Shown: piece after piece, positions 8,589 to 53,474 of the stretch
Layout of the letters: each line of letters starts with the position of its first letter
Numbering within the stretch: the stretch's first letter is position 1
NCBI GenBank assembly: GCA_028716565.1
Contig: JAQUPL010000007.1
Location: 10,819-74,818, forward strand
DNA length: 64,000 nt
From: Candidatus Omnitrophota bacterium
GTDB taxonomy: Bacteria > Omnitrophota > Gorgyraeia > Pluralincolimonadales > Pluralincolimonadaceae
Reading direction: 5' to 3'
Made by a program: the position numbers and the translations under genes
The notes under the pieces: model-generated
What the model was told of the DNA's origin: nothing
Seen by the model: the letters and a program-made list of their open reading frames with translations, nothing else
The model's database searches: none

Positions 8589-8590
8589 GA

Positions 8591-12673: not shown

Positions 12674-12859
12674 ATTTCCACAACGTCTTTTTCCTTCGCT
12701 TACTTAGACTTTTTAATCTTTTGAACTATTGCAGTATTTTTCTGGCTTTTGGCTCTTGCTACTGACATAAACTTTCCTGTTATAGCACTTCTACCGATTT
12801 TAAATGTCTTGCCCATTCATTACCTCCTTTTGTAATGTTGCCTAATTCATATTCCTGGA

Positions 12860-13228: not shown

Positions 13229-13380
13229 CGTGCCCTCCTCGGGGGTCTGGGTGCTGTAAATTTACCTCCCCTGCTGCTACGCCCAGACATTTTCCCACGA
13301 CATTGCCCAGTTTGTTTATCAATGTAGTATAAATAACCTTTTCGACGTTTAATCTCTTTCTTCATTATCTTTTTCTTCAT
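13225..13380 (-). CDS. possible small basic protein (51 aa; below ORF-track cutoff)
   Basis: Manual translation MKKKIMKKEIKRRKGYLYYIDKQTGQCRGKMSGRSSRGGKFTAPRPPRRAR; its stop overlaps the TTG start of 12860..13228. Confidence 0.25.
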   Translation of the reverse strand: MKKKIMKKEIKRRKGYLYYIDKQTGQCRGKMSGRSSRGGKFTAPRPPRRAR

Positions 13381-13626
13381 ACTATCTCTCCCTCAATGCC
13401 CACTATGCATCCTTATTCAATTCCTTTTTATGTTCTATAATATTATCGAGTTTGTTACTAATGTCGTTGAGGTATTTATTTGTAGAGTCGACATTGTTAA
13501 CGAGTTTTTCTATATTAAGCCCGATTAGTATTAGGGCTACAATTGCAATCACTCCTATAGCAATCATATTCACCTCATTTCTTCAATACAGTTTTAATGC
13601 CCAAGCAACTATTAATTGTTTTTTAT

Positions 13627-14061
13627 TCATTTGTCTACTTCTTGCCCACAATTAGAGCAAGCATCCTGAAATACTTTATTTTTCTCATTACAAGAAGGAC
13701 AAGTCCAATATCCATCCTTAGAAGACACCTTTAGAATTTCATTTTTCTTCAAATTCTCATTAGGTATCATATTAGCTGGAGGTTCTCGTTTATTTATCTT
13801 TTTATATTCCTTATACCAAATTATTCCTATCGCTATTGCGAGGATAACTTCGAGAGTATCTGTAAAATCACGAGATATGTCAGGGATGGAGTTAAGAAAA
13901 CTAAACAATTTTTTGAATAGCACAGCCAATACTATTACGGTTAAAAATTTTATTAAATACATTTTGGTTTCTTTAAGTTTCCTCCAGTTACAATGTTTTC
14001 CATAAAGAAATATCCCCATAAAAAATAATACAGCTGATGGGACGCTTCCAAAGTAAATCAT
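13627..14061 (-). CDS. small membrane protein with C-terminal zinc ribbon
   Basis: Two or three TM helices, then CPSCNEKNKVFQDACSNCG. Confidence 0.45.
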   Translation of the reverse strand: MIYFGSVPSAVLFFMGIFLYGKHCNWRKLKETKMYLIKFLTVIVLAVLFKKLFSFLNSIPDISRDFTDTLEVILAIAIGIIWYKEYKKINKREPPANMIPNENLKKNEILKVSSKDGYWTCPSCNEKNKVFQDACSNCGQEVDK

Positions 14062-14447
14062 TTATTGTCCTCCAGGGTCATCTTTTTACGATAATTATTC
14101 AACCTATGTCCAATTACTGCACTCATAATATAAATAGCGGAGACTAGTGATAAAATTCCCACTAATCCTCCTTTTACTGAATTCGGCTCACCGTCCTCAT
14201 TAGTTCCTAATGTCCAAGACTCGGGAATAAAAAAGAACGCTCTATCCAATCCAATATATAAGATTAACAACAATGAAATACCCGCTCCAATAATAATCGC
14301 AAAAGTGATTCTTCCTCGTCCATAACCACACTCGTCATAATCTAACCGCTCGGGCTTGAATATCAAATTCCAAACAAATATAAGAGACGACAGATAGAGA
14401 AAAATATAACACACGGTTATAGCGATATTTACAACAAGTTCCATCAT
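14058..14447 (-). CDS. small membrane protein (3 TM), unknown
   Basis: Hydrophobic; start/stop overlap with neighbours. Confidence 0.45.
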   Translation of the reverse strand: MMELVVNIAITVCYIFLYLSSLIFVWNLIFKPERLDYDECGYGRGRITFAIIIGAGISLLLILYIGLDRAFFFIPESWTLGTNEDGEPNSVKGGLVGILSLVSAIYIMSAVIGHRLNNYRKKMTLEDNK

Positions 14448-14481
14448 CCCTCCCTAAGAAGGTTGTTAAGTTAATTGAGAA

Positions 14482-14694
14482 TTAGTTTTTCTTTTCTGGA
14501 CGAAGTATGGAATTCAGTTTAACAGCAACCACGAGTCCAATCCAGCCAACGATTGCACACATCCATTGCTTTAGGAAAACTCCCCCGCCTCCCAATAATC
14601 CTGTCCCGAGCAAGTAGAGGGAAACAAAAGCAAGACCGCTAATACATATCATTAGATGTAACTCTAGGAGCTCTTTTTTCGTTGGAAGTCTCAT
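14482..14694 (-). CDS. small membrane protein (2 TM), unknown
   Basis: Hydrophobic 70-aa ORF; overlaps the next gene by 4 bp. Confidence 0.4.
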   Translation of the reverse strand: MRLPTKKELLELHLMICISGLAFVSLYLLGTGLLGGGGVFLKQWMCAIVGWIGLVVAVKLNSILRPEKKN

Positions 14695-14999
14695 CTCTTC
14701 ACCGATTTAATAAAATAAACAATAAAAATGATGCCCCCAATTAAATCTGCAATCCTCCACGCTTCTTTTCCGAAATAAAACTTCATAAATGGATTAAACA
14801 ATAAGGCAACAATCCCTAATACCCAAGCCCAGCCAAATTCCTTTTTTTGGTAAGTCAAATATGCCCCATAAGCTCCTACTCCACACACAAAGAACCTCAA
14901 TAATTGATAATACGAATACGGTAAATCTCCCAATGCTATAAATAACACTATGCCTGCAATTAAAAATATAGGATTTCTTTTCATATAAGCAAACCTCAC
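14691..14999 (-). CDS. small membrane protein (3 TM), unknown
   Basis: Hydrophobic 102-aa ORF. Confidence 0.4.
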   Translation of the reverse strand: MRFAYMKRNPIFLIAGIVLFIALGDLPYSYYQLLRFFVCGVGAYGAYLTYQKKEFGWAWVLGIVALLFNPFMKFYFGKEAWRIADLIGGIIFIVYFIKSVKR

Positions 15000-15006
15000 T
15001 TTTTAA

Positions 15007-15420
15007 CTAAATTTTAAATTGGTTTTGCCATTCTCTTGAAATATTCTTTGTTCTTGCCGAAACTATAAACATAGTTATTATGAGTAGGGGTATAATCAAT
15101 AATTCCCAATCGTTTACTCTGCCTAAAACACCAAGAACGAGGAAAATAATTAAACTAAAGCGTTTATAACCGCAAACCTTAGAACGCTGGTAGCTAACAT
15201 TAAAAATTGAAAAATATAAAGTGAATTGTATTATTATTAACACCCACACAAACCAAAGTGGAGCAGTAGCACGAATAGCATTTAACCATAACGTTACACC
15301 AATATAACCTATAAGAATACTAAGAATGCTAACAACAAACATTCTTCTCTCAATTTTCAAACCTTTTGTTTTAAGAAATTCGCTTAGATTCATTTCCCCT
15401 TCAATGTCCTTATCGCCCAA
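15007..15420 (-). CDS. small membrane protein (4 TM), unknown
   Basis: Hydrophobic 137-aa ORF. Confidence 0.4.
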   Translation of the reverse strand: MGDKDIEGEMNLSEFLKTKGLKIERRMFVVSILSILIGYIGVTLWLNAIRATAPLWFVWVLIIIQFTLYFSIFNVSYQRSKVCGYKRFSLIIFLVLGVLGRVNDWELLIIPLLIITMFIVSARTKNISREWQNQFKI

Positions 15421-15593
15421 ATGACGAAACGAAATACGAGGTAAATAGGATAACCAAAAAAGAACAACATATAGCCTGCATTCGAAGTATTAGCGTTGCT
15501 TCCTGGTATGACCTCAGCCGTCATAATAAACGCTGCTAATATAATCCCTATTAATATTAATCCTTCTCTTGCTACGATTTTCTTAATGTTCAT
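15390..15593 (-). CDS. small membrane protein (2 TM), unknown
   Basis: 67-aa hydrophobic ORF. Confidence 0.35.
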   Translation of the reverse strand: MNIKKIVAREGLILIGIILAAFIMTAEVIPGSNANTSNAGYMLFFFGYPIYLVFRFVIWAIRTLKGK

Positions 15594-15633
15594 TCCTTGC
15601 TCCTGTAGTCATTTACCGAGAATTAAATCAGTA

Positions 15634-15828
15634 TCATCTGAGATATAATATAATAACTGCTATCAACAATATAAATACAAGACAGCCCATACAACCACCA
15701 TCTCCGCTACGATGCAAGCCATTTTCGAGGTCATCTACTTTGCTCTCAAGGCCGTCCACCCTGCTTTCTACGTCATCTATTCTATCTCGTGGCTCATAAT
15801 AATCAGAATCTTCGGTTTCGTCTTTCAT
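15634..15828 (-). CDS. small tail-anchored protein (acidic coiled-coil N-terminus, C-terminal TM)
   Basis: DDVESRVDGLESKVDDLENG followed by CLVFILLIAVIILYL; first gene of the co-directional array. Confidence 0.35.
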   Translation of the reverse strand: MKDETEDSDYYEPRDRIDDVESRVDGLESKVDDLENGLHRSGDGGCMGCLVFILLIAVIILYLR

Positions 15829-15883
15829 ATTATTTCTCCGATTTCTTTTCTTCGTATATTATCCTGCCATCTTCTTAATTAAA

Positions 15884-15913
15884 AAGGTAACCCCCTATTT
15901 AGAGGGTTACCTT
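15884..15913 (-). terminator. perfect 10-bp inverted repeat (AAGGTAACCC / GGGTTACCTT) with U-run on the minus strand; terminator or insulator upstream of the small-membrane-protein operon
   Basis: 10-bp stem, 10-nt loop; the minus-strand sequence continues TTTTAATT. Confidence 0.4.
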
Positions 15914-16301
15914 ACGAATTTAACCTGATTTTGACCTCATAACTGCCCCTTTGCGGTTGGAGTCTCATTATCCTACTAAGAGAGCCTCAATTCAACCCTT
16001 TTTTGGCTGTTCTGGGGCATTTGTAAGCACTCTTGGGTCTTTTTAGGGATAGACAATTTAACTTCGTTTTTTGCTTAATTTTAGGGTATAATTTGTGCTT
16101 GGATACCTTGTTGAACTTCGCATTCTGTATAAATTACGAAACAAAATTCATTTGATTATTTATTAGTTCATACGTATGATGAATAGGGATGACTCTAATG
16201 ACAATTTTTTATTATTAAAAGATGGTAAATATGTTTGATTTCTCAATTGATTAAGAGTATGATAAATTCCAGATTAGTGTTTGTTAAGGGAATATACTTA
16301 A

Positions 16302-17519
16302 ATGGTAAATAAAACAATATTATTATTGCTATTTATTAGCCTTATCTGTGGTTGTAGCTATGCTAGTAATGCTATCTCAGAAAATCCATCCCCCAATCCT
16401 GCAAATAAGAATATTGAGAGCAACAATACGCCTTCGGATATCTCTAACCTTATAGAAGAAAAAATAGATGCGAAAATAGGCAAATTAAAGGATGCATATT
16501 TAGAGAATGGCATTTTATCTAATAAACAATATTTAGATAGCTTAGGTAGAATAGAAAATAATGTTGATACGGATTTAGGCCGAATTTGGAAGCTTTTAAG
16601 TGCGGTCGGAATAGTAATCGCTATCCTGGGAATATTTGGATTTTCTAACTTAGCAGAATTATATAGGTCAATACATAGAGCTAAAGGCGACCTTGACCAA
16701 ACAGGTAAATTGTATAAAACTATGGAAAATAAGCTACGTCAACAATCTCAGGAGTTAGAAGAAAGATACGGATACCTCACCGACCCATCATTAACAACAA
16801 AAATAGCGCCTACATTATTAGATGAAAATAAATTTCTTAATTACGACCACCAGTTATATTTTATGCCCGTGTTTTTACCTATAACAAAAAATTTTAACTT
16901 ATATAAAAATTCTTTACTTAAAATTGGTATTTTCTTCTTATGGCAAGGTAATTATGCGAGAGCTATTTTACGCTTTGAAGAAATAGAAAAATTAACAGAG
17001 ATAGAACACAAAAAATTTATATTAGGTAAAAATATTTTGGGGGATAAAACGGACGTATTTTTAAATGCTTATGGAAATGCTTGTTCATATTATGCTACAG
17101 AAAAATGCACTAAAGGCTCATCTGAATGGAATGAATATATAGTTAAAGCTGAGGATTATTACAAAAAATCAATAAAAATTAATAAATTTTTTCAAAAACC
17201 ATACTATAATCTTGGCTTATTATATGCTGTGGATAAATACAACTTGGATAAAAATAAGGAGAATTGTCAAAAAGCACTTGAATATTATACCCTTGGACTC
17301 AAATATACAAAAGAACCAAACGATGTTTATGCTATTAAATGGAATATGGCTTGCAGTAAGGTTAAATTAGAAGCTCCGATTGAAGAAGTTATGGAACTGC
17401 TTGAATCTATCCCTGTGAACAACCACTTTTGGCCAAAAATACAAGAAGATTCCGTCTTTAATCCAATAAAAAGCACGCCCGAATGGCGTGCTCTTATAAC
17501 TAGAAAAACTTCTAATTAA
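16302..17519 (+). CDS. lipoprotein with helical/TPR-like repeats (island cargo)
   Basis: Signal peptide with LICGCS lipobox; low-complexity N-terminus; Y/N-rich helical repeats. Confidence 0.55.
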   Translation: MVNKTILLLLFISLICGCSYASNAISENPSPNPANKNIESNNTPSDISNLIEEKIDAKIGKLKDAYLENGILSNKQYLDSLGRIENNVDTDLGRIWKLLSAVGIVIAILGIFGFSNLAELYRSIHRAKGDLDQTGKLYKTMENKLRQQSQELEERYGYLTDPSLTTKIAPTLLDENKFLNYDHQLYFMPVFLPITKNFNLYKNSLLKIGIFFLWQGNYARAILRFEEIEKLTEIEHKKFILGKNILGDKTDVFLNAYGNACSYYATEKCTKGSSEWNEYIVKAEDYYKKSIKINKFFQKPYYNLGLLYAVDKYNLDKNKENCQKALEYYTLGLKYTKEPNDVYAIKWNMACSKVKLEAPIEEVMELLESIPVNNHFWPKIQEDSVFNPIKSTPEWRALITRKTSN

Positions 17520-17859
17520 CCCCGTTATACGCTTTTTGTATTCTCGCTATACATTTTAATCACCTTCCTGTACTTAAAGTATATCTCAAAAATTAACTAA
17601 AATCAATGCCTCTATTGTTTTTTAAGGAAGTGTTTTCTCTATAGACAATTATAGCCTCGGTCAATACCAAGGCTAATTTTTAAGATTTTTAGGATATAAA
17701 TATAGTTTTTTGGCAAAGCTTGCTTTCCCATAAGTGCTTTCTATTTTACTAACCTTAAGATACTCTGTCAAGCGAAATATCATACGAAACTCCTCTTCCC
17801 AATTTTACAATCCCCTTTCTGTCTGCACCTAAAACAGCTCAAACCGACTGTCGTGACAA

Positions 17860-18053
17860 CTAAGACTTTATGCCCAAATACTTTAGTCTGTTTCTATACC
17901 TTTTGACTGGCCTTGTCCTATCTTTCTCCCAATTAACAATAGTCATTTCATCTACTCCGAGTCTCTTTGCAAGGTCTACCTGCCTTAACCCCTTCTCGAG
18001 CCTACACTTGCGTATCTTTTCTCCGGATGTCTTGTCTGAATGACGAGAAACCC
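17860..18053 (-). pseudogene. XRE-type HTH reading frame without a canonical start codon (possible remnant or non-canonical start) at the island right end
   Basis: Minus-strand frame encodes IRKCRLEKGLRQVDLAKRLGVDEMTIVNWEKDRTRPV (HTH_XRE-like). The only ATG is within the HTH (MTIVNW). Confidence 0.3.
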
Positions 18054-18091
18054 TGAACCAAAGCTTGATAGGCTGTGTGTGGAATGAGTGG

Positions 18092-19156
18092 TCACGGGCA
18101 GGGGTTCATCGCGGCGACGAGCATGAATTTGGCCGGGTAACTGAAATTATACGCGGCCCTCGAAACGGTGATAGTCCCGCCTTCAAGCGGCTGGCGCAAA
18201 GCCTCCAAAGCATCGCGATGGAATTCCGGGAGTTCATCCAAAAATAGCACGCCGTTATGCGCGAGGCTTATCTCCCCGGGCTTTAAAACCTTGCCTCCCC
18301 CGACAAGGCCGGCATATGAGACCGTATGGTGCGGCATGCGGAACGGGCGCCGCGAGACCAGGAAGTTCCTGCTGTCGAGCAGCCCCGAGACGCTGTGGAT
18401 CTTTGTCGTCTCGAGCATCTCCCCGAAGGATAGCCCTGGCAATATAGTTACCAGCCGCTGGGCAAGCATCGTCTTGCCGGAGCCGGGCGGGCCGATCATA
18501 AGGACGTTGTGGCCGCCGGCAGCCGCTACCTCGAGGCCGCGCTTTACGTGCCATTGCCCTTTTACGTCGCTGAAATCGATATCAGAACCGCCGGACGACG
18601 GCTTCGGCACCCCGGCAAGATCGACTTTCAGCGGTTCGATCTTCGCGTTGCCCTTCAGGAAATTCACCACTTCGCCGAGGTCTCTCGCCGGAAAGACCGA
18701 GATCCCGCTGACGATGGCCGCCTCCCTGGCGTTCTCCGACGGCAGGATAAAATCATTCCCCCCGTTCTCCGAAATACATATCGCGATAGGCAGGGCGCCG
18801 TTTATCGGCCTCAGCCTGCCATCAAGCGATAACTCGCCGCAAAATACTTTTCCGTCCACATGGCCCTGCTCCAGGTCCCCGGCGGAGACGAGCAAGCCCA
18901 ACGCTATGGCCAGGTCAAAAGAAGCCCCTTCTTTCCGCAGATCCGCCGGCGCCAGGTTTATCGTTATCTTTTTCGGATGCAATTTAAAACCGGAATTTTT
19001 TATCGCCGAGATGACCCTGTCCCTGCTTTCCCTGACCGCGGTATCCGGGAGGCCGACTATCGTAAAACCCGGCAGGCCTCCACTGGTATCCACCTCAACA
19101 TCCACTTTTTTCGCTTCTATCCCCAACACTGTCCTGCTCTCTATTTTCGCAAGCAT
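18092..19156 (-). pseudogene. comM: comM N-terminal fragment (Lon-like N domain plus AAA+ Walker A GPPGSGKT), truncated after AAMNPCP by the island
   Basis: [48 protein letters not shown] ... [14 protein letters not shown] ... [11 protein letters not shown] then stop. The continuation (CGYFTD ...) is at 3051..3530. Confidence 0.85.
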
Positions 19157-19157
19157 T

Positions 19158-19526
19158 TTAGCTCCAGAATGCGTCCTTTATGATTTCAGTATCCTTTATA
19201 TTGCCCTTTTTGTCGAAGACCACCGAAACACAGTCAAATCTTGAATCATGGTCCGAAAGACCATATTTCATCTGAAAGGCGGCCGCGACCCGCCTAATAT
19301 GCTGTCTCTTGGTATGGTTTATCGTCTCGTACGGAAGCCCGTACCCGTCATCCGACCTGGAGCGGACCTCTATAAATACAAGCGTCCCCCGGTCCATCGC
19401 GATTATATCTATCTCCCCGAACCTGCAGCGGAACTTCCGCGCGATTATGCTGTAGCCTTTTAAGGCGAGGGACCTCGCCGCGTGCGTCTCGCCGAGGTCC
19501 CCCAGTTCCTTATTCCCCACTTCCAA
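19158..19526 (-). CDS. yraN: YraN-family (UPF0102) endonuclease
   Basis: [21 protein letters not shown] matches the YraN signature. Confidence 0.8.
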
Positions 19527-30506: not shown

Positions 30507-32105
30507 TTAATGCCTGAAATGCCTTACACCGGTCGTCACCATCGCGATCCTGGCCTTATCCGCGGCCTTGACCGAATCCTCGTCTTTTATCGAGCCGCCC
30601 GGCTGTATTATAGCGGATATGCCCGCTTTACCGGCTAATTGCACCGAATCCGGCTTCGGGAAGAACCCGTCGGTCGCGAGGCAGGAATCCTTCGCGCTCT
30701 TCCCCGCTTTCCTGATCGCTATCCTCGCCGAATCGACCCTGCTCGGCTGCCCGCCGCCTATACCCACCGTCTTCTCCCCCTTAGCGATGACTATCGCGTT
30801 CGACCTGACATGTTTCGCGACTTTCCATGCAAAGAGCAGGGATCTCACCTGGCTCTCCGACGGGCTTTTTTTCGTCACCGTCTTCAGGTCCGCCTTGGCG
30901 ATCTCTAGCGTATCCTGCTCCTGGAGAAGCATCCCGCCCTCGATCTTCTTTACATCGCATGAATAGACGCCGCGTTCAGGCCCTTTTCCAATATCTTTAT
31001 ATTCGATTATCCGCACGTTCTTCTTCCCGGCCAGGACCTTGAGGGCGCCGGCCTCATAAGAGGGGGCGATCACGCATTCCAGGAACCCCGAATCCGATAT
31101 CGCTTTCGCGGTCTTTACGTCGACCTTCCTGTTGAGGCCCACTATGCCGCCGAACGCCGAAAGGGTATCGCAGGCAAAGGCGTCTTTATACGCCTGGTAG
31201 AGCCTCGGGGATGAAGCGACCCCACAGGGAGAATTATGCTTGACGACGCACGCGGTGGGAGCCGCAAAATCCTTTACTATCTGGACCGCGGAGTGCAGGT
31301 CCAGGAAGTTATTGAACGAGAGTTCCTTGCCATGGAGCTGTTTCATATTCCCGAAACCGTAAGCCGGTTTTACCGCGTCTGCGTAGAAGGCGGCCTTCTG
31401 GTGCGGGTTCTCGCCGTAACGCAGGCCCTGCGCCCTCTCGAAGACAAGATGGAGCAGGTCGGGGAATTTGTCCTTTGTCCGGCCCAAACGTCCGCTTAAA
31501 AAAGCGTATATCGCCGCGTCATACTTCGCCGTATGGCCGAATGCCTCCAACGCGAGCGCCTCGCGCGTGTCATCCGAAAGGGAACAATCGTTCTTCTGCA
31601 ATTCCATCAGCACGCAGAGGTACCTGTCGGGATTGCATAAGACGGCGACATCATCGAAGTTCTTGGCGGCCGAGCGTATCATCGCCGGCCCGCCTATATC
31701 TATCATCTCTACGGCCGCATCGAGCTTGACCCTGGGATTCCTGACCGTATCCTCGAACGGGTAGAGGTTCACGACGACCATGTCGATCAGGCCTATTTTG
31801 TGCTTCCTGGCCTGGGACATGTGTTCTTTGTCGCCGCGCCGCGCGAGTATCCCGCCGTGGATCTTGGGGTGCAGGGTCTTCACGCGCCCGCTCAGCATCT
31901 CGGGAGAACCCGTCACGTCCGAGATGGCGCGGATCTTTATCCTGTTCTCTTTCAGGACCTTCGCGGTCCCGCCTGTCGAGATGATCTCCACACCGAGCTT
32001 CTCAAGCCCCCTGGCAAAATCAATGATGCCCTTTTTGTCGGAAACGCTGATAAGCGCCCTCTTTATCCTGGTCATTTTCAACCTTTCTGATGTGTACCCC
32101 TGCAA
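30507..32105 (-). CDS. purH: bifunctional AICAR transformylase / IMP cyclohydrolase
   Basis: MGS-like N-terminus (ALISVSDKKGIIDFARGL ...) plus AICARFT domain. True start likely MTRIKRAL at about 32075. Confidence 0.9.
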   Translation of the reverse strand: MQGYTSERLKMTRIKRALISVSDKKGIIDFARGLEKLGVEIISTGGTAKVLKENRIKIRAISDVTGSPEMLSGRVKTLHPKIHGGILARRGDKEHMSQARKHKIGLIDMVVVNLYPFEDTVRNPRVKLDAAVEMIDIGGPAMIRSAAKNFDDVAVLCNPDRYLCVLMELQKNDCSLSDDTREALALEAFGHTAKYDAAIYAFLSGRLGRTKDKFPDLLHLVFERAQGLRYGENPHQKAAFYADAVKPAYGFGNMKQLHGKELSFNNFLDLHSAVQIVKDFAAPTACVVKHNSPCGVASSPRLYQAYKDAFACDTLSAFGGIVGLNRKVDVKTAKAISDSGFLECVIAPSYEAGALKVLAGKKNVRIIEYKDIGKGPERGVYSCDVKKIEGGMLLQEQDTLEIAKADLKTVTKKSPSESQVRSLLFAWKVAKHVRSNAIVIAKGEKTVGIGGGQPSRVDSARIAIRKAGKSAKDSCLATDGFFPKPDSVQLAGKAGISAIIQPGGSIKDEDSVKAADKARIAMVTTGVRHFRH

Positions 32106-32181
32106 CTAAACGCTTCGAAAATTTGAAACAAATTTTCTCGCAGTTGCGGGGTTAATCATATTAAATGTAAAATAGGGATGA

Positions 32182-32769
32182 TTAATATTTTAGCAGGTTT
32201 AGTTCCTGCCTGTAAAGCTGGATTTCGCGGCGGAGGGAGGTTATCTCTTCTTCGAGAAGCGCCAGTTCCTGCTTCGCTTTCTCCACATTGTTCTGCAATT
32301 CGGCTTGTTCCTGCGTCGAGAGGCTTAATTTCTTATTATCGAGCAGCCCCTTCTGGTTTTTTATCGAACTCCTGATGGATGATGCCCTAGCTTCCTTGCC
32401 GGCCAGTTTCACCTTAAGTTCTTCGGCCTTGCTGTTTATCTTCTGCCTCTCGGGGTCAAGGTTGGCGTTAAGGTCGCGGGTCTTCGCGTAAAGGTCCTTC
32501 CTCGCGGCCTTGAGCTCCTCTTCAAGTTCCATTATCTTCGAGTTTATCTCGCCCTGTTTCGCGCGGAATTCGCCGTTCATTGTCTCTATCCCGGAATCTA
32601 CCTGGGCCTTTTTATCGAGGGCAGCCTTGAAAGAGGGGTCGAATTCGAGCAGCGCGGCCTTTATCTCTTCGGGTTTCTGCTGGGGCCCGCAGCCCAGGAA
32701 TAATAACGGCAAGGCGGCGGCCGCGGCGATCGATATGAAGAGTTTTTTTGCGCCCATGCTTATCATCAT
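32182..32769 (-). CDS. coiled-coil lipoprotein (OmpH/Skp-like?)
   Basis: Signal peptide plus LGCG lipobox; heptad-rich K/E/L remainder. Confidence 0.45.
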   Translation of the reverse strand: MMISMGAKKLFISIAAAAALPLLFLGCGPQQKPEEIKAALLEFDPSFKAALDKKAQVDSGIETMNGEFRAKQGEINSKIMELEEELKAARKDLYAKTRDLNANLDPERQKINSKAEELKVKLAGKEARASSIRSSIKNQKGLLDNKKLSLSTQEQAELQNNVEKAKQELALLEEEITSLRREIQLYRQELNLLKY

Positions 32770-34030
32770 GCGGCGGCTGGTTTCGTCTCAGCCGTCTTTA
32801 CGTCCTTCTTGCCCTGAGCCGAGGCGTAGGGCTTCGCGGTTTTTCCCTGATGATTGACCCTTACCACTTCGCCTTCCTCTACAGGCTCATGATAGGTGAA
32901 TATCTGTCCGGCGAAATTCCTCAAGGTAAAGGAGCCTTTTGCCTGCGATATGACGTAGTTCGGCGCCACGGGTATCTTTCCGCCCCCGCCGGGCGCGTCG
33001 ACGACATACGTCGGGACCGCGTAGCCCGATGTATGGCCGCGCATCTTCTCCATTATATTTATCCCGGTCGCTATCGGTGTCCTGAAGTGGCTAATGCCCT
33101 TCGCCGGATCGCACTGGTAAATGTAATACGGCCGCACCCTGGCCTTAAGGAGCTCGTGCATGAGCCTGCGCATCGTAGACGGTCTGTCGTTTACGCCTTT
33201 TAACAGCACCGTCTGGCTCCCGAGCGGCACGCCCGCGTCTGCCAGCATATCGCACGCCTTCCTGCAGCGTTTTGTCAGTTCCTTCGGATGGTTGAAATGG
33301 AGCGATATCCATACCGGGGAATATTTCTTAAGCATCGATACCAGTCTCTCGGTCACCCTCATCGGTACCGTAACCGGCATCCTCGTCCCGATGCGGACGA
33401 ATTCTACGCTCGGGATATCCTTCAAATTCTTAATGATATCGTCCAGCGTCTCGTCCGGGAGCATGAGAGGGTCTCCCCCGGAGATCAGGACGTCGCGTAT
33501 CCTGCGGTTGGACCTTATATATTCATACGCCTTCTCGAAATTCTGCGGGCTTGTCAGGTGCGCCTCCGACCCGACGATCCTCCTCCTCGTGCAATGGCGG
33601 CAATACATCGCGCATTTCTCAGTCGCCAGCAGGAGCACCCTGTCCGGATACCTGTGGACGAGCCCGGGGACAGGCGAGTCCTTGTCCTCCCCGCACGGGT
33701 CCTCCATATCAAAAGCCGAGACATCGAACTCCTCGGCCGTCGGTATCGCCTGTTTCCTGATGGGGCAGGTCGGCCTCATCTCGTCTATAAGCGAAAGCCA
33801 ATATGGCGCTATCGCCATCAGGAGCCGGCCCTTCGACCTTTTGACCCCGATCTCTTCGGACGGGGTGAGCTTAATGACCTCTTTAAGGCCGTCATAGGTC
33901 ATTATCCTGTTCTTTATCTGCCAATGCCAATCCTCCCAGTCGCTTTCAGGCACGTCCTTCCAGTGCTCTGCCAAGGAATTAGAGGCGTTTATCAACGTGA
34001 ACTCCTTTCTTGTAGGGCCAGCTTCTTGTT
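32766..34030 (-). CDS. kamA: lysine 2,3-aminomutase (KamA-family radical SAM)
   Basis: Collinear with B. subtilis KamA from HWKDVPESDWEDWHWQ through CAMYCRHCTRRR (CxxxCxxC), PYYIYQCD and AVPTYVVDAPGGGGKIP. The start is uncertain; the ORF-track start at 34100 is probably too long. Confidence 0.85.
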
Positions 34031-35041
34031 TTTGTTGTGTCTTTCGACAGCAACTTCGAGTATCCTGTTCATCAGGTCCGGATAATTGAGCCCGGCGCAT
34101 TTCGATATATAAGGGAAATTAGAATCTACCGGGTCCAATCCCGGCAGCGGGTTCACTTCCAGGACATACGGGACGCCGTCTTTCCCGAGCATTATATCGA
34201 CGCGGGAAAGGTCGACACAGCCTATGGCGCGGAACGCCTTGAGGGCGGTCTCTTTTACCGTCTTAGCCTCGGCCGCGCTCAAACGCGCCGGACAATGCCA
34301 GTTCGGGGTCAATCCCTTACTCTCCTCTACTTCCTTCTCGAACTCCTTGACCTTCCATGTATAAAAAAATTCGCCCGAGGCCTTGCAGTTCGAGAAATCT
34401 ATCTCTAGTATCGGCATCGCGGCGGCCGGATAATTGCCGAGGATGCCAACGGTCAGCTCTTTACCGTCGATGAATTCCTCGACGAGCGTCTCCTGCTGGT
34501 AGATGCGCGCGGTCCTCTCGGCCTCGCGGATGAGCTCTGTCTTATTCCGGACGACGCTGGCCATAGTTATTCCCTTGCCCGAGCCCTCGCTGTTAGGTTT
34601 CGCTATAAGCGGATATTTAAGCCCTTCGTCGGAGACGGACGCCGGATCCGTCACAAGCCTGTATTTCGGCGTCGGTATCCCCGCTTGCTCGAAAAGTTTT
34701 TTCGTAAGCGTCTTGTTCAGCGAGACGCTTAAAGCCATGACTCCCGAACCCGTATACGGTATCCCGAGAAAATCGAGTATCGCCGGCACCTGCGATTCCC
34801 TCGATTCGCCGTTAAGCCCTTCGGCTATATTGAATACCATGTCTACTTTATTGTTCTGGAACCAGTTCAGCAGCCCCTTGTCCGCCTCGACCAGGAATAC
34901 TTCATTGCCGCCGGAACGGAGTCCGCTTGCTATCGCCTCGATCGTCTCCTTACTGTCAAATTCAGAATAATAATCATCGGGAAGGCCGGTATTGCCGGTC
35001 TTCCTCTTCAGGTTATATGTAAGGGCTACCTTAAGTCCCAT
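33992..35041 (-). CDS. D-alanine--D-alanine ligase family ATP-grasp enzyme (copy 1)
   Basis: FNIAEGLNGESRESQVPAILDFLGIPYTGSGVMALSVSLNK is the Ddl N-domain pattern, followed by an ATP-grasp C-domain (VEEFIDGKELTV ... LEVNPLPGL). Confidence 0.75.
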   Translation of the reverse strand: MGLKVALTYNLKRKTGNTGLPDDYYSEFDSKETIEAIASGLRSGGNEVFLVEADKGLLNWFQNNKVDMVFNIAEGLNGESRESQVPAILDFLGIPYTGSGVMALSVSLNKTLTKKLFEQAGIPTPKYRLVTDPASVSDEGLKYPLIAKPNSEGSGKGITMASVVRNKTELIREAERTARIYQQETLVEEFIDGKELTVGILGNYPAAAMPILEIDFSNCKASGEFFYTWKVKEFEKEVEESKGLTPNWHCPARLSAAEAKTVKETALKAFRAIGCVDLSRVDIMLGKDGVPYVLEVNPLPGLDPVDSNFPYISKCAGLNYPDLMNRILEVAVERHNKNKKLALQERSSR

Positions 35042-35042
35042 C

Positions 35043-36089
35043 TTATCTAATCCCGTACCTTTCCAGCGCGTGATCGAGTATCCTGCTTATTATGCTGTTA
35101 TATGATATCTTCATGTTCCTGGCCACTGTCATGAAGACATCCTCGGTAGAGAGCGACGGCAGCGGGTTTATCTCGAGCACGAACGGGTTGCCGTTCTTAT
35201 CCACCCTTATATCTACCCTGCCGAAATCGCGGCATTCTACCGCCTTATAGGCCTTTAAAGCTACGGCCTTGAGCTTTTTGTCGAGGTCCCTGGTGATCTT
35301 TGCCGGGCATACATAGCTCAACGTGTCCGACTTTATCCTCGAGAAGGTGTAGCAGAGGTCGCCTAGGTTTGTCTTTCCGTCTATGCTGATCTGGACCGTC
35401 GGCAGCACCTCGGGGTTTTCGGTTCCTATGATAGGTACGGTAAATTCCGAGCCGGTAATAAATTTTTCGACGAGCGCCGGCTGTTTATAAGTCCGTATTA
35501 CCCAACCCGCCCGCCTTTTTAGCTCGCGGCGGTTCTTTACGATAGATCTGTCGCTTATCCCCTTGCTCGAGCCTTCCTGCTTCGGCTTGACTATCAGGGG
35601 ATAGTCTATTCCTACGCCGTCGATATCCCTGACATCGGAGACTTCGAAGAACGCGGGCGTAGGCACACCTTCGGAGATGAGGATCTTCTTTGCCATTATC
35701 TTGTCGAGCGTCAGGCCCAGCGTAAGCCCGTCGCCCCCGACGAACGGGATTCCGGCCATCTCCAATATCACGGGCACCTCGGATTCCCTGTTCCGCCCGG
35801 TTACGCCCTCGGCTATATTAAAGACGATGTCGACATCGAGCTTTTTCAACCGGCGAAGAAGGTTACGCACGTTGCCGATCTTCACGACCTTATGGCCGCC
35901 GGATTCTATTGCGTCCTTTATGACTTCGATGGTATCAGGATGGTCAAACTCGGCATTGGCGTCTTCCGGATCGCCTTTCTTTAATACATAGTCGGGCTTG
36001 ACGTCGTAGGTCAACCCCACTATTTTACCCCGCACCTTTGAGGTGCGGGGATTGTGCCCCATTCTGCGTTTCACCGCAACATTTGCCAT
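35043..36089 (-). CDS. D-alanine--D-alanine ligase family ATP-grasp enzyme (copy 2)
   Basis: Paralogous to 33992..35041 (FNIAEGVTGRNRESEVPVILEMAGIPFVGGDGLTLGLTLDK ... LEINPLPSL). Start possibly the internal MGHNP. Confidence 0.75.
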   Translation of the reverse strand: MANVAVKRRMGHNPRTSKVRGKIVGLTYDVKPDYVLKKGDPEDANAEFDHPDTIEVIKDAIESGGHKVVKIGNVRNLLRRLKKLDVDIVFNIAEGVTGRNRESEVPVILEMAGIPFVGGDGLTLGLTLDKIMAKKILISEGVPTPAFFEVSDVRDIDGVGIDYPLIVKPKQEGSSKGISDRSIVKNRRELKRRAGWVIRTYKQPALVEKFITGSEFTVPIIGTENPEVLPTVQISIDGKTNLGDLCYTFSRIKSDTLSYVCPAKITRDLDKKLKAVALKAYKAVECRDFGRVDIRVDKNGNPFVLEINPLPSLSTEDVFMTVARNMKISYNSIISRILDHALERYGIR

Positions 36090-36109
36090 AATTTATCTTC
36101 CCGGGGTAC

Positions 36110-36147
36110 AAAAAAAGAAGGGACTTCCCCGTTTAGAAGTCCCTTCT
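36110..36147 (-). terminator. Rho-independent terminator (12-bp stem AGAAGGGACTTC/GAAGTCCCTTCT, U7 on the minus strand; A/T runs on both sides)
   Basis: Perfect 12-bp stem, 8-nt loop, flanked by AAAAAAA (36110..36116) and TTTTAAAAA. Separates the TM protein gene from the ATP-grasp/KamA operon. Confidence 0.65.
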
Positions 36148-36198
36148 TTTAAAAACCTAGTTGAAATTATCCAACTTTTACTGCTCGTTCCTCCGGAA

Positions 36199-36882
36199 TT
36201 ATCTCTTTTTCCATTTGTCGACAATTTCCGACGTTATCTTGCCGGCAATATCCTTCGAGCCGAGGCCGAACGCCAAGCCCAAAGCTAATCCGGTCGCCGC
36301 CAATGCCACCACTACCACGGTATCCAATATGAACGTCCTGACACCGAGCATCGGGAGGACCGTAAGTACCGTTATGACGATTATGACTACCTGCGCTATC
36401 GATCCGAGGTTCTTTGCTGTCGCTATCCCGGCGTTTGAAGCCATGGTCCTTACTATCGAACCTATCAAAGCAGCAAAGAAAAGACCCAGGACCAGAACAA
36501 AGATCGAAAGTACTACCCTACCGGCGTATTCAACCGCCTGATCGAGGAAACCGGACGTCTTGAGGCCCACTACGTTCAGTGTTATGATCACAAACACCAG
36601 AACCAGCAGCCAATAGACCACCATACCGATCAACTCTGACAGGGTATGCTTGATCTCGCCTTTGGCGAGTATGCTCGCGATACCTGCCTTTTCAGATAAG
36701 ACATCAAAGCGGGCGACCTTAAGTACCTGAACAATGGCCTTCTCGACGATCTTCGTGATGATCAGGAAGATAACGAGAAGTATCAATCCGCCTACGAGAA
36801 GTATCAGGTAATTAGCCAAATTCGACCATACCTGGCTCCAGGTGGTGACGATCAAATTCAATGTCGTCTGCCCTTGACCCAT
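36199..36882 (-). CDS. membrane protein with conserved TM-helix repeats (MscS-associated TM_helix-like)
   Basis: 227 aa, five or six TM helices with repeated (L/I)GSI(A/V)..V pattern. No C-terminal MscS beta domain. Confidence 0.5.
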   Translation of the reverse strand: MGQGQTTLNLIVTTWSQVWSNLANYLILLVGGLILLVIFLIITKIVEKAIVQVLKVARFDVLSEKAGIASILAKGEIKHTLSELIGMVVYWLLVLVFVIITLNVVGLKTSGFLDQAVEYAGRVVLSIFVLVLGLFFAALIGSIVRTMASNAGIATAKNLGSIAQVVIIVITVLTVLPMLGVRTFILDTVVVVALAATGLALGLAFGLGSKDIAGKITSEIVDKWKKR

Positions 36883-37041
36883 CTTACCCCTCCTTTCAGG
36901 TTTTTATTCCCTAAAATGATTCCCTGTTTGATTTAATATTAACATAAAGAAAATAATTGTCAAGCACTTTTTCCAGATTTAGCAATAAATTTCTATTCCG
37001 CGGCCGCGGCATTATGATATAATCATAAAAATTAAACGGAG

Positions 37042-37608
37042 ATGAAGATGAAAAGACTTTTTGATCCCAAAGCGTGGATTTTCGTCACTATTATACTGGT
37101 CTTTTGTAATACGCCGGCTTTTGCGGCCGGCAACAAGAAGGTGGCGCAGCTTTTGACGCAGGCAACCCGGTTTTTAAGCGCCGGTGACTACGATAAAACT
37201 ATAAAAACATGCGATGATATAGCGTCCATGGACCCGAATTGCCCGGCCGCCTATTATCTTCGCGGATTCGCTCACCGCTACAAAGAGGAATATGAGATCG
37301 CCATCATGGATTTTACGCGCGCGCTTCAGATAGACCCTAAATACGCGGCCGCCTATCAAGGGCGCGCGCTGTCATACGCATATACGGGGGATTTCAGGGC
37401 CGCGTTGGCGGATCTTGACACGGCGATCGCCATAGATCCCCGTTATACCGACGCATATATAAACCGCGCGAGGGTATATTATGAGATGGACGAATACGGC
37501 AAGGCGTGGGACGACGTGCATAAGGCGGAATCCCTCGGCGTATCCGACGATATGCTATACAAAGGATTTATCAATAAACTGAAGGAAGCTTCGGGAAGGA
37601 ACCGATAG
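37042..37608 (+). CDS. periplasmic TPR-repeat protein
   Basis: Signal peptide; repeated AxxYxxRGxAxxxxGxYxxAIxDxxxAIxxDP TPR units. Confidence 0.7.
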   Translation: MKMKRLFDPKAWIFVTIILVFCNTPAFAAGNKKVAQLLTQATRFLSAGDYDKTIKTCDDIASMDPNCPAAYYLRGFAHRYKEEYEIAIMDFTRALQIDPKYAAAYQGRALSYAYTGDFRAALADLDTAIAIDPRYTDAYINRARVYYEMDEYGKAWDDVHKAESLGVSDDMLYKGFINKLKEASGRNR

Positions 37609-37642
37609 CGGCGTGCGGGATCCAGGCCCGTCTTTTTTACTT

Positions 37643-37915
37643 TTAGGTCTTTTTCCTGTTGGGGAATAATACCAGTATAGCAAACCCGAAGATGCTTAAA
37701 AGCCCGAGTAATCCCCAGGCGCCTTTGTAGCCTTTGCCTTTTGCGTAATTCCACAGGCCCCATATCAGCAGCAGGAATCCGCCGTAGATAAGGATAGCCG
37801 CGCACCAGAGGACTATCCCGATATGGACATAATAACTTGCCAGAAACCCGATTATCTGCGCCAGTATCCCGAACCCCACTCCGATATTCGTCTTTATCCT
37901 GTACTCCCCTATCAT
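37643..37915 (-). CDS. small membrane protein (90 aa)
   Basis: Three hydrophobic helices; stop/start overlap with the glycosylase gene. Confidence 0.4.
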   Translation of the reverse strand: MIGEYRIKTNIGVGFGILAQIIGFLASYYVHIGIVLWCAAILIYGGFLLLIWGLWNYAKGKGYKGAWGLLGLLSIFGFAILVLFPNRKKT

Positions 37916-52490: not shown

Positions 52491-53474
52491 TCACTGCCAG
52501 ACTCCCGGGATCGCCTCATTGCAAGAGGAACATCTTCCGTTTGCGACATTATTTTCCAGCACATCGTAGCCGATGCGCTTTATTAAAAGCTTCCCGCACT
52601 TGGGACAATAGGTATTATTCCCGTCGTGTGAGGGGATATTCCCGACATAGGCGTAACGGACGCCCCTATTTTTTGCCATCTTCCACGCCGCGTCAAGCGT
52701 CTCTTCCGGGGTCGGCGGCAGGTTCTTTAACTGGTACTGCGGCCAGAATTTGGAAAAATGCAGCGGGACATCGGCACCCACATTCTCGACCGTCCAGTCG
52801 ATAAGGCGGGCCAGATCATCTTTTTTGTCGTTTAGCGTCGGGACTATCAGGTTGACCAGCTCCATCCAGACCCTGCGTTCTTTGATCGCCTTTATCGTGT
52901 CGAGGACCGGTCGAAGCCTACCAAAAGAGACCTTATTGTAAAATTCTTCAGTTATCCCCTTGAAATCCACCTTTATCGCATCGACCGCCGAGCAGAGGTC
53001 ATCAAGCGGCTTAGGGTTGATATATCCGGCGGTAATAAATACGCTTTTGATGCCCGCTTTCCGGCCGATCTTCGCGGTATCCAGGACATATTCCAAATAT
53101 ATGACGGGATCATTATAAGTATACGCTATCGACCTGCAGTTATACGCAGCCGCCCTTCGCGCCAATTCCCCCGGTGGGAGGTCGATATTGTCGGTCTCTT
53201 CCGGATCCGACTGCGAGATGTCCCAGTTCTGGCAGTATTTGCAGTGCAGGTTACATCCGGCCGTTCCTATCGAGAACGCGGATGAGGCGGGAAGAAAATG
53301 GTAGAGGGGCTTCTTTTCGATGGGGTCCACGTGGACGGCGCACGGCTTTCCGTAGACGAGGCTTATTACCTTGCCGCCTCTGTTCGACCTCGCCCTGCAG
53401 TTACCCTTTTGTCCTTCATCGAGGACGCATCCGTTGGGGCATAACTCGCATTGTACGAGATCTCCCTTTGCCAT
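52491..53474 (-). CDS. AmmeMemoRadiSam-system radical SAM enzyme (PflA-like activase family)
   Basis: N-terminal CELCPNGCVL ... GNCRAR cluster plus CNLHCKYCQNWDIS (CxxxCxxC). Confidence 0.8.
   Translation of the reverse strand: MAKGDLVQCELCPNGCVLDEGQKGNCRARSNRGGKVISLVYGKPCAVHVDPIEKKPLYHFLPASSAFSIGTAGCNLHCKYCQNWDISQSDPEETDNIDLPPGELARRAAAYNCRSIAYTYNDPVIYLEYVLDTAKIGRKAGIKSVFITAGYINPKPLDDLCSAVDAIKVDFKGITEEFYNKVSFGRLRPVLDTIKAIKERRVWMELVNLIVPTLNDKKDDLARLIDWTVENVGADVPLHFSKFWPQYQLKNLPPTPEETLDAAWKMAKNRGVRYAYVGNIPSHDGNNTYCPKCGKLLIKRIGYDVLENNVANGRCSSCNEAIPGVWQ

Follow-up and report, generated by a model that had tools for sequence, protein, structure and literature searches.

The 64-kb window analysed here, meaning the whole stretch of DNA, carries three coupled genes, grA, grB and kamA, which on balance we favor as encoding a previously uncharacterised ATP-dependent pathway to a β-lysine-containing di- or tripeptide or short oligomer. 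What this pathway makes and what it is for are inferred, the substrates being assigned from gene context and residue substitutions, and no product for a partnership of KamA with Ddl-like ligases is described in the literature searched. The locus comprises the following features.

36199 to 36882, minus strand: MscS-TM-like small membrane protein, 227 aa (PF05552 at 2e-9); possible accessory gene
36108 to 36150, minus strand: intrinsic-terminator hairpin, 16-bp stem (approximately 36150 to 36113) with T-run, separating grA from the MscS-TM-like gene
35043 to 36089, minus strand: grA, which opens the unit, ATP-grasp ligase with Ddl fold, 348 aa
33992 to 35041, minus strand: grB, ATP-grasp ligase with Ddl fold, paralogue of grA, 349 aa
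34002 to 34007, minus strand: Shine-Dalgarno-like AAGGAG, 6 nt 5' of the proposed kamA TTG, read from the sequence
32766 to 33995, minus strand: kamA, lysine 2,3-aminomutase, 409 aa from TTG 33995
32182 to 32769, minus strand: coiled-coil protein carrying a signal peptide and a lipobox-like LFLGC, with its ATG start and the kamA stop sharing ATGA

Organization of the locus

The three open reading frames described in a sequence-only reading of this DNA are all present on the minus strand at these coordinates, and their description as an apparent operon was borne out by inspection of the sequence, in which grA and grB lie 1 nt apart and the kamA TTG overlaps the grB stop codon TGA. The kamA gene of that reading stands, with a probable correction to its start. 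The longest kamA ORF in the ORF list begins at ATG 34100 (444 aa, 109-nt overlap), and both 2A5H and distant homologues align to it only from approximately residue 40. Because AAGGAG with a 6-nt spacer precedes the TTG, and the TTG overlaps the grB TGA, kamA most likely starts at 33995 rather than at ATG 34100.

The strong terminator that had been proposed ahead of grA is likewise evident as a stem and T-run in a 121-nt intergenic stretch with a predicted folding energy of -43.1 kcal/mol (z = -4.7). Approximately 18 nt remain between the terminator and the grA ATG, with no promoter evident in that interval, and the stretch matches no Rfam family at threshold. Hairpins of differing sequence occupy the same place in related loci (L002-L004, L006, L007, L009 and L047). 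The membrane protein beyond the terminator had been called MscS-like, which holds for its TM-helix repeats and not for the channel itself, as the 227-aa protein contains no full MscS channel domain (NF033912, 44 bits vs a cutoff of 100). Its family (family 14) is encoded upstream of grA both here and in 11 related loci, and downstream of kamA in L024 and L055, and is absent from the remaining related loci; it thus accompanies the triad in only 13 of 80, albeit at two different positions. The coiled-coil protein has no Pfam match, and its gene (family 19) follows kamA only in close relatives of the window and in L047.

Within 6 kb we found the coiled-coil protein, purH-like, folC-like and mnmE-like ORFs, the MscS-TM-like gene and a TPR protein; the MscS-TM-like and TPR neighbors were scanned with profiles, and the others were named by reading the ORFs and by reference to the Pfam-annotated locus L086, which is syntenic. 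A lysine fermentation cluster (kamA-kamDE-kdd-kce-kal) was considered and rejected, there being no downstream catabolic genes within 6 kb.

KamA retains the determinants of a lysine 2,3-aminomutase

The assignment of kamA as a bona fide lysine 2,3-aminomutase was upheld by profile scores and by the retention of every lysine-specific residue. The product matches the Pfam Radical_SAM and LAM_C families and narrowly passes the NCBIfam AblA model TIGR03820 (534 bits, cutoff 525.4); it fails the models for glutamate aminomutase (465 vs 650) and arginine aminomutase (401 vs 600) and scores below cutoff for EpmB (238 bits, cutoff 369.3). Alignment with the C. subterminale enzyme 2A5H, which gave 503 bits over residues 6-370, revealed that the CxxxCxxC cysteines (C125/C129/C132), the PLP-binding lysine K337, and R134, D293 and D330 are all kept, the last three also in the KamA partners of L081, L085 and L086. 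From the 2A5H work we take Asp293 and Asp330 to hold the lysine ε-ammonium group and to differ in glutamate 2,3-aminomutase, and Arg134 to bind the carboxylate.

In the same alignment the clostridial structural Zn site (Cys268 and the C-terminal Cys cluster) is absent from KamA, with Cys268 replaced by Arg; the match to the AblA model ends at position 367 of 417 and is followed by a low-complexity tail. Because EpmB likewise has no clostridial-type Zn site, this site is probably not essential for catalysis by KamA.

GrA and GrB are Ddl-fold ligases with altered pockets

That two paralogous Ddl-like ATP-grasp ligases precede kamA was corroborated by PF07478 (Dala_Dala_lig_C) matches at 1.3e-34 for GrA and 8e-36 for GrB, by 38.8% identity between the two over 335 aa, and by the AlphaFold model of GrA (pLDDT 79, pTM 0.83), for which the top Foldseek matches are solved Ddl structures at TM 0.7-0.8. 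Both proteins nevertheless score below the cutoff of 243 for the best Ddl model, NF002378 (174.7 bits for GrA, 199.3 bits for GrB), and fall still further under the cutoffs of all other Ddl and Van models. More than 560 genome matches were obtained for GrA.

Residues were compared in DdlB numbering across 40 grA and 40 grB sequences, and the pocket role assigned to each Ddl residue is presumed from DdlB structures. The ATP/Mg set (K97, K144, E180, E187, R255, D257, E270, N272) is invariant in all of them, and S150 is kept in both proteins. The amino-acid pocket is changed: H63 is replaced by Glu in GrA, in GrB and in almost every module of this ligase family, and the GGxSxE motif at the N terminus of Ddl is replaced in both, with the alignment of the Glu15 region being ambiguous. 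GrA carries S281D, invariant across its clade, together with G276S and L282V; its K215 is replaced by Ile, or by Arg in the phmmer alignment, and Y216 is lost. GrB carries an invariant Y216E and an 8-residue insertion in the omega-loop, has S/N or D,E/S at the S281/L282 pair depending on the alignment, and keeps K215, R255, G276 and probably S281. Substrate residues of a true Ddl are therefore not conserved at H63, Y216 and the S281/L282 region, and we regard GrA and GrB, as judged from their residues and scores, as probable ATP-grasp catalysts that are not Ddl.

Conservation of the triad and its fusions in other phyla

The arrangement is conserved far beyond chance. Among 80 Omnitrophota loci, 68 contain the full triad, 11 are ended by a contig edge and one has grA directly followed by kamA, such that the order grA-grB-kamA holds in 68 of the 69 loci that reach far enough; the co-localization with KamA on which the sequence-only reading had staked its proposal is thus kept in relatives, and it recurs in other phyla. 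The genes flanking the triad differ between Omnitrophota clades while the triad is constant. No GNAT next to the triad was detected by tblastn across the 80 loci, a weak test for a divergent family, and no peptidase or dedicated transporter adjoins the Omnitrophota triad.

According to record titles the triad is found in groundwater, lake and marine Omnitrophota alike, a spread that is a poor fit to a purely salt-induced osmolyte.

In Myxococcota, Desulfobacterota, Elusimicrobiota and unassigned metagenome contigs, KamA adjoins one or two such ligases, often together with a small GNAT, in the following arrangements.

L085 (Myxococcota): KamA, fused ligase, GNAT
L089 (metagenome contig): KamA, fused ligase, GNAT; sigma-54 activator upstream
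L088: fused ligase, KamA
L086: ligase, KamA
L081 (Elusimicrobiota): ligase, with KamA 4 kb off
L093 (Desulfoferrobacter): KamA-ligase fusion, ligase, GNAT; sigma-54 activator upstream
P0188: ligase-KamA fusion
P0207: KamA-ligase fusion, then ligase-GNAT fusion
P0375, P0379, P0380, P0388, P0392: further KamA-ligase fusions
P0338, P0357: ligase-ligase-GNAT proteins
L083, L087: S58 peptidase directly 3' of a fused ligase

Ligase-ligase fusions account for approximately 40 of the 149 top family representatives. The GNATs of these clusters are 159-180 aa long, with a weak RimI-like best match and no AblB model among the matches listed, and S58 is a family that includes β-aminopeptidases. No KamA lies within ~8 kb in three of the 11 non-Omnitrophota contexts (L083, L087 and L090) or within the shorter record of P0155; because of these cases, either the ligase family is not strictly tied to β-lysine or kamA is located elsewhere in those genomes.

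Comparison with known systems

The AblA/AblB system makes N-ε-acetyl-β-lysine, a compatible solute of methanogens and some bacteria, and is represented by kamA-yodP in B. subtilis. The triad resembles it in using an AblA-type aminomutase for the first step, and the modules of other phyla also include a GNAT acetyltransferase. In contrast to AblAB, no acetyltransferase lies beside kamA in the window or the 80 Omnitrophota loci, where the kamA neighbors in the window are grB and the coiled-coil gene; the GNATs of the related clusters are short and do not match AblB as noted above; and the triad adds two ATP-grasp ligases. A KamA-family enzyme also supplies β-lysine for an ATP-dependent amide bond in EpmB/EpmA, but EpmA is a LysRS paralogue and not an ATP-grasp enzyme, KamA fails the EpmB cutoff, and no efp is nearby.

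With Ddl and the Van D-Ala-D-Lac and D-Ala-D-Ser ligases, GrA and GrB share the three-domain fold and the residues for ATP, Mg and phosphoryl transfer; they differ in their scores and pocket residues, in forming a conserved pair or fused proteins, and in being linked to KamA and not to mur and fts genes. The Ngg enzymes, a GNAT and an ATP-grasp protein, make the osmolyte dipeptide N-acetylglutaminylglutamine amide (NAGGN), and the ligase-GNAT fusion in L092 and the ligase-ligase-GNAT proteins P0338 and P0357 may be likened to them in architecture. Here, however, the building block would be β-lysine supplied by a radical-SAM mutase, the ligases belong to the Ddl type and occur in duplicate, and no partner amidotransferase was evident. 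Carnosine synthase (CARNS1/ATPGD1), whose acyl donor is a β-amino acid, BacD/YwfE and BL00235 are likewise ATP-grasp enzymes that make free dipeptides, but they are far more distant than Ddl and act as single enzymes with no aminomutase partner; BL00235 (3VOT) is the only solved non-Ddl/Van dipeptide-forming ligase among the matches (1.6e-8 and 3e-8).

Alternative explanations

Repeated ligation could instead yield oligo- or poly-β-lysine, or a branched, cyanophycin-like nitrogen store with the S58 peptidases as depolymerases, an outcome we consider rather unlikely. Two ligase modules per system recall a backbone-plus-branch logic, S58 peptidases adjoin fused ligases, the sigma-54 activators upstream in L089 and L093 are consistent with nitrogen-type regulation, Asp occupies the acceptor-carboxylate position of Ddl, and the minimal systems of KamA plus one GrA-type ligase would suit self-condensation of β-lysine, chains of which are carried by streptothricins. 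Ddl-type enzymes, however, have a lid that closes over a pair of small substrates, and none is known to act processively; primer-binding or extra domains of the kind present in cyanophycin synthetase or RimK are absent, and nothing else points to granule formation or export. A role in the cell wall, in which one or both ligases would be a working D-Ala-D-Ala or D-Ala-X ligase or would add β-lysine to a peptidoglycan precursor in a terminal dipeptide or as a cross-bridge residue, has analogues in VanA-type ligases and the enterococcal ATP-grasp D-aspartate ligase, and it seems to us improbable. The closest solved structures and profiles of GrA and GrB are all Ddl or Van, GrB keeps several Ddl residues (S150, K215, R255, G276 and probably S281), and glycosyltransferase-like and O-antigen-ligase-like genes, identified by sequence reading, lie upstream in some loci. 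There is no third Ddl-like gene in the window or the related loci, which says little given that those loci span only ~15 kb per genome, and all 176 of the complete Omnitrophota genomes surveyed in a preprint are reported to carry K01921, a count that might itself rest on grA or grB. Against these points, both ligases fall under every Ddl and Van cutoff with Y216, H63 and the GGxSxE motif replaced, and none of the loci has a neighboring gene for a Mur ligase, a racemase or a Fem-type protein. Moreover, Desulfobacterota and metagenome contigs have members of the family fused to KamA and GNAT, and in Myxococcota the family stands beside both; Desulfobacterota and Myxococcota are expected to have a canonical Ddl of their own.

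Homologues of KamA feed EF-P modification in γ-proteobacteria, and many Omnitrophota loci have an EF-G paralogue and a near-bare YchF C-terminal domain protein after kamA, such that the ligases might place β-lysine on a protein side chain in the manner of EpmA or of RimK- and LysX-type tagging. We consider this very improbable: KamA is AblA-like rather than EpmB-like (238 bits vs 369.3), efp was found neither in the window nor in any of 93 loci, the translation-related neighbors are missing in the clade of the window and in other phyla, and the GNAT and S58 partners, together with a Ddl-type fold suited to small substrates, speak for small molecules. The genomes of Omnitrophota are compact and mostly co-directional, and purH and folC also remain near the triad, yet a mere conserved synteny of genes with no shared function is scarcely credible when the flanks vary between clades and the triad does not, start and stop codons overlap, and the partnership reappears in unrelated phyla in other gene orders and as physical fusions, the fusion proteins contradicting it directly.

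Proposed pathway

In the favored pathway to a small β-lysine-containing peptide, KamA would use its radical-SAM and PLP chemistry to convert L-lysine to β-lysine. GrA and GrB, as putative descendants of D-Ala-D-Ala ligase whose amino-acid pockets have been rebuilt with new acidic residues, would each use ATP to activate a carboxylate as an acyl-phosphate and then couple it to an amine, and two ligases would form the two amide bonds of such a peptide. In other phyla the small GNAT probably caps the free amine by acetylation, and in some of those modules the S58 peptidase probably recycles the product; neither is near the Omnitrophota triad. The constant triad, the cross-phylum co-localization and the fusions support the earlier suggestion that β-lysine is passed to Ddl-derived ligases and not to AblB or EpmA, and we infer that it is the direct substrate of GrA and GrB. 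The ligase that accompanies KamA singly, or that is fused to it, is of the GrA type, with Asp at the position used by Ddl for the acceptor carboxylate. Speculatively, GrA may join β-lysine to an amine with no adjacent carboxylate, for example the ε-amine of a second β-lysine, and GrB, in which positions Ser281 and Lys215 are retained, may attach a conventional amino acid. An osmolyte role is weakly hinted at, and the product would presumably stay free in the cytoplasm as a solute, whether an organic cation or a compound resembling an osmolyte.

Gene cluster and its boundaries

Three consecutive minus-strand genes, here called the triad, encode two paralogous ATP-grasp ligases with the fold of D-alanine–D-alanine ligase (Ddl), grA and grB, and a lysine 2,3-aminomutase, kamA (all coordinates are window positions).

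36089..35043, minus strand: grA, 348 aa, Ddl C-terminal domain at 1e-34
35041..33992, minus strand: grB, 349 aa, Ddl C-terminal domain at 8e-36
34100 to 32766, minus strand: longest ORF of kamA as read, KamA family
33995..32766, minus strand: kamA as taken here, 409 aa, with a TTG start, an AAGGAG and an overlap with the grB stop
~36150..36108, minus strand: hairpin terminator (stem and T-run) after the MscS-TM-like gene

A single nucleotide separates grA from grB. We place the start of kamA at the TTG at 33995, which lies 6 nt past the AAGGAG and overlaps the grB stop within the string GTTGA, and not at the ATG at 34100, because the ATG would mean a 109-nt overlap with grB and because homologues and the lysine 2,3-aminomutase structure from Clostridium subterminale (2A5H) can be aligned only from about residue 40 of the longer ORF. 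The kamA stop in turn overlaps, as ATGA, the ATG of the next gene, whose coiled-coil product bears a lipobox.

The strong terminator that had been read ahead of grA from sequence alone is indeed there as a hairpin with a T-run, and the 121-nt intergenic stretch holding it folds at -43.1 kcal/mol (z = -4.7); the hairpin reappears in relatives with sequence changes. No promoter-like site was found in the approximately 18 nt between the T-run and the grA ATG, and the triad would be expressed either by read-through of the terminator or from a promoter overlapping the hairpin. Close relatives also keep a second small hairpin (AGTTGGATAATTTCAACT) on the minus strand of 36085..36205. When 31500..37700 was compared with Rfam for a lysine leader or riboswitch, it gave nothing but sub-threshold chance matches. 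The gene upstream of the terminator had been described as encoding a membrane protein with MscS-like TM-helix repeats and a possible osmotic function; the small protein does have the repeats (PF05552 only), which do not make a full channel. The window and 11 related loci have this gene 5' of grA, and L024 and L055 have it 3' of kamA, a placement that weakly hints at linkage with the triad.

KamA as a lysine 2,3-aminomutase

KamA consists of Radical_SAM and LAM_C domains (Pfam) and scores 534 bits against a cutoff of 525.4 on the equivalog model for AblA, the aminomutase of the N-acetyl-β-lysine pathway, whereas the models for glutamate aminomutase, arginine aminomutase and the EF-P-pathway enzyme EpmB all failed. 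Aligned to 2A5H (503 bits across 365 residues), it retains the PLP lysine, the three cysteines of the cluster and also Arg134, Asp293 and Asp330. The Zn-site Cys268 of the clostridial enzyme is missing, as is its cysteine-rich C-terminus. The AblA score, the 2A5H alignment and the kept cluster, substrate and PLP residues together make β-lysine the expected product, in agreement with the sequence-only reading of a bona fide KamA. In place of the clostridial C-terminus, the 3' end of the gene (32766..32900) encodes a low-complexity Lys/Ala/Gly-rich tail whose conservation is limited to close relatives.

Two ligases that depart from Ddl

GrA and GrB are 38.8% identical to each other, and the nearest solved relatives of both by sequence are exclusively Ddl or Van enzymes; for the predicted fold of GrA (pLDDT 79, pTM 0.83) Ddl and Van enzymes are again nearest, with TM scores of 0.7-0.8. 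The broad Ddl model, however, has a cutoff of 243 bits, of which GrA reaches 175 and GrB 199, and both score far under the cutoffs of the remaining Ddl and Van models.

To compare residues, 40 GrA and 40 GrB sequences were aligned to E. coli DdlB, with reference residues 24-305 taken from alignment output and supplemented by positions 1-23 and the last residue of the DdlB sequence. The residues for nucleotide, magnesium and phosphoryl transfer (K97, K144, E180, E187, R255, D257, E270 and N272) are invariant throughout. The position of DdlB His63 is Glu in both ligases, E94 in GrA, and a conserved EFD motif stands in place of the glycine-rich GGxSxE motif. In GrA, Ser281 is replaced by Asp at about D317, Gly276 by Ser and Leu282 by Val, and the Lys215-Tyr216 pair is lost, with Arg at position 215 under an alternative alignment; in GrB, Tyr216 is replaced by Glu and the lid loop carries an eight-residue insertion. 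The pocket that each Ddl residue presumably lines is assigned after the DdlB structures. A cationic substrate, for instance β-lysine, would be well matched by the acidic side chains gained. With H63 and Y216 changed in both proteins and S281/L282 in GrA, where a true Ddl would be expected to conserve its substrate residues, the earlier reading of both as Ddl-like ligases is supported, and judged by their sequences grA and grB are not ordinary Ddl genes.

Conservation across Omnitrophota

The scan covered one genome per species, and more than 560 genomes with a GrA relative appeared among the matches listed. The best protein match, at 96% identity, likewise bears an Omnitrophota name. We examined the best 80 loci, nearly all of which carry Omnitrophota labels. 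The order grA-grB-kamA is found in 68, and 11 end at a contig edge inside or just after the ligases; in the last, L077, on an Omnitrophota-type contig, kamA comes straight after grA and grB is missing (L077:856-3055). Identities to the window proteins across these loci are 58-87% for GrA, 49-89% for GrB and 60-87% for KamA. When all ORFs of the 80 loci are clustered, the triad is the sole constant element.

The neighbours differ on both sides. Upstream lie a UPF0280-like protein, HypE, a HAD hydrolase, a PAC2-family protein, an M20 deacylase or genes of envelope type, judged by eye to be glycosyltransferase-like and O-antigen-ligase-like. Downstream lies an EF-G paralogue, a protein consisting mostly of a YchF C-terminal domain, or a coiled-coil protein, and then purH and folC. 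The EF-G paralogue (~650 aa, all five EF-G domains) sits between kamA and purH in L013, L025, L031 and ~30 other loci, and the 233-aa protein after it has the YchF C-terminal domain (DUF933) as its sole Pfam match and no GTPase domain. A tblastn search of the 80 loci found no GNAT or S58 genes near Omnitrophota triads.

Relatives in other phyla

Searching 1.84 billion representatives with a profile returned 2316 proteins below 1e-30. Of the 149 that rank next after the window's own cluster, ~40 are ligase-ligase fusions and 2 are KamA fusions. Loci and proteins outside the 80 are arranged as follows, with the taxon where it is given.

L085 (Myxococcota): KamA, double ligase, GNAT
L089: sigma-54 activator, KamA, double ligase, GNAT
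L088: double ligase, KamA
L086: single ligase, KamA, then purH-folC-mnmE, in the order of the window
L081 (Elusimicrobiota): single ligase, with KamA 4 kb off
L093 (Desulfoferrobacter): sigma-54 activator, KamA-ligase fusion, ligase, GNAT
L091: ligase-KamA fusion
L092: KamA-ligase fusion, ligase-GNAT fusion, then Na/H exchangers
L083 and L087: double ligase, then directly an S58 peptidase, with no KamA within 8 kb
P0155 (protein representative): double ligase, GNAT, no KamA
L090: single ligase, methyltransferase, no KamA

Fusions are seen in every pairwise combination, and a further search added KamA-ligase fusions and ligase-ligase-GNAT proteins under the labels Gammaproteobacteria, Spirochaetota, Planctomycetales and Deltaproteobacteria. 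The lysine-binding aspartates are kept in the aligned partner KamA proteins of L081, L085 and L086. The absence of grB from L077 and the single ligase in L086 and L081 indicate that a one-ligase version of the system exists. An AblB-like identity for the cluster GNATs was not upheld, no AblB model being among the matches listed. The S58 peptidase belongs to the DmpA/BapA family, which includes β-aminopeptidases.

In a rough NJ tree, Omnitrophota GrA clusters with ligases that occur singly next to KamA or as fusions with it, GrB lies near both L092 modules, and the halves of the fused ligases split into a conserved and a divergent half; each half is ~25-40% identical to either GrA or GrB. In L081 the ligase and kamA are separated by an HTH gene and by a gene for an internalin-like, leucine-rich-repeat protein of 1086 aa (L081:9095-12355). 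Sigma-54-dependent activators stand just 5' of the KamA/ligase/GNAT clusters on two unrelated contigs (L089:4892-6349 and L093:6284-7702), which suggests regulated expression there.

Other features of the window

A low-GC island at 3400..19200 (GC 0.32-0.43, against ~0.53 in its flanks) looks like an integrated mobile element. At one end is a large serine recombinase (3425..5074, minus strand) and at the other a short 354-aa ComM/YifB-like Mg-chelatase ORF of truncated appearance (18092..19156); the ORFs are mostly without a Pfam match, and they include one Hypoth_Ymh protein and one zinc-ribbon protein. The stretch at 51-63 kb was considered as a cell-division or cell-wall cluster with ddl and rejected, its actual genes being gcvT/gcvP, aconitase-family, mdh and synthase genes. 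At 52491..53474 lies an AmmeMemoRadiSam-system radical SAM enzyme (TIGR04337, 392 bits), with central-metabolism genes around it, namely gcvT/gcvPA/gcvPB, aconitase-family subunits, mdh and a homocitrate/isopropylmalate-synthase-like gene.

Discussion

The invariant gene order, the start/stop overlap, the linkage across phyla in shuffled orders and the fusions leave a shared pathway as the only reasonable reading. KamA would form β-lysine and each intact ATP-grasp enzyme would make one amide bond via an acyl-phosphate, so that KamA and two ligases should yield either a short oligomer or a β-lysine peptide containing two amide bonds. Where other phyla have the GNAT, it would probably acetylate a free amine, and the S58 enzyme would probably degrade the product. 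The sequence-only reading had likewise proposed ATP-dependent ligation of β-lysine into a dipeptide or oligomer and had pointed to genome context as a check; the KamA-ligase linkage recurs, both within Omnitrophota and across phyla, and the predicted product follows from the enzyme families. A cytoplasmic solute role would be favoured by the precedents of N-acetyl-β-lysine and of NAGGN, an osmolyte dipeptide made by a GNAT and an ATP-grasp enzyme (Ngg), and it also points that way that some loci have ion-transport or MscS-like genes next to them and that others elsewhere are under sigma-54 control. A simple salt-stress role is disfavoured, because Omnitrophota with GrA come from groundwater, lake and marine sources alike.

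The ligases may instead serve the cell wall, but both fail the Ddl cutoffs, their substrate residues are replaced, mur neighbours are absent and their counterparts in other phyla are fused to KamA and GNAT. We give very little credence to a new Omnitrophota peptidoglycan chemistry in which the pair makes a β-lysine dipeptide or adds β-lysine to the muropeptide stem or cross-bridge. A third, canonical Ddl was not found in the window and the surveyed loci, which are a small fraction of each genome. The Ddl orthologue K01921 is reported in 176 of 176 complete Omnitrophota genomes (preprint 10.64898/2026.06.07.730766), with no gene specified behind the count and no per-gene KO breakdown. That count could include, or consist of, grA and grB, since pipelines name such ligases 'D-alanine-D-alanine ligase' (the other names in the sources being 'ATP-grasp domain-containing protein' and 'hypothetical protein'). 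Synthesis of a polymer is possible, although Ddl-type enzymes offer no known precedent for it. Modification of a protein with β-lysine, as EpmB and EpmA carry out on EF-P, is unlikely, given that efp was found neither in the window nor in any of the 93 loci, that KamA is not EpmB-like and that the partner genes indicate small molecules. We retain a β-lysine peptide as the most likely product.

The enzyme families and the logic of β-lysine solutes and ATP-grasp dipeptide ligases are already known; the combination of KamA with Ddl-derived ligases, and its product, are uncharacterised. Full-text searches of the literature gave no description of the gene set, with an earlier mention possible in the ATP-grasp context survey of Iyer et al. 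2009.

'D-alanine-D-alanine ligase' labels from JGI and other pipelines can inflate calls of cell-wall pathway completeness, and claims of complete D-Ala-D-Ala supply in Omnitrophota should be rechecked; if the cell-wall reading were true, 'D-Ala-D-Ala ligase present' calls in surveys of the phylum may rest partly or wholly on grA and grB. If the β-lysine peptide reading is true, the triad represents a widespread, uncharacterised route from lysine to β-lysine peptides, which the GrA type alone places in at least 560 species-level genomes and which fused proteins extend to Myxococcota, Desulfobacterota, Spirochaetota, Planctomycetota and Gammaproteobacteria. The triad would also be a clear example of the recruitment of Ddl to a new job, and its product a new class of β-amino-acid metabolite acting as a solute, polycation or nitrogen store, made by what is seemingly a near-constant feature of Omnitrophota, a phylum whose physiology is almost unknown.
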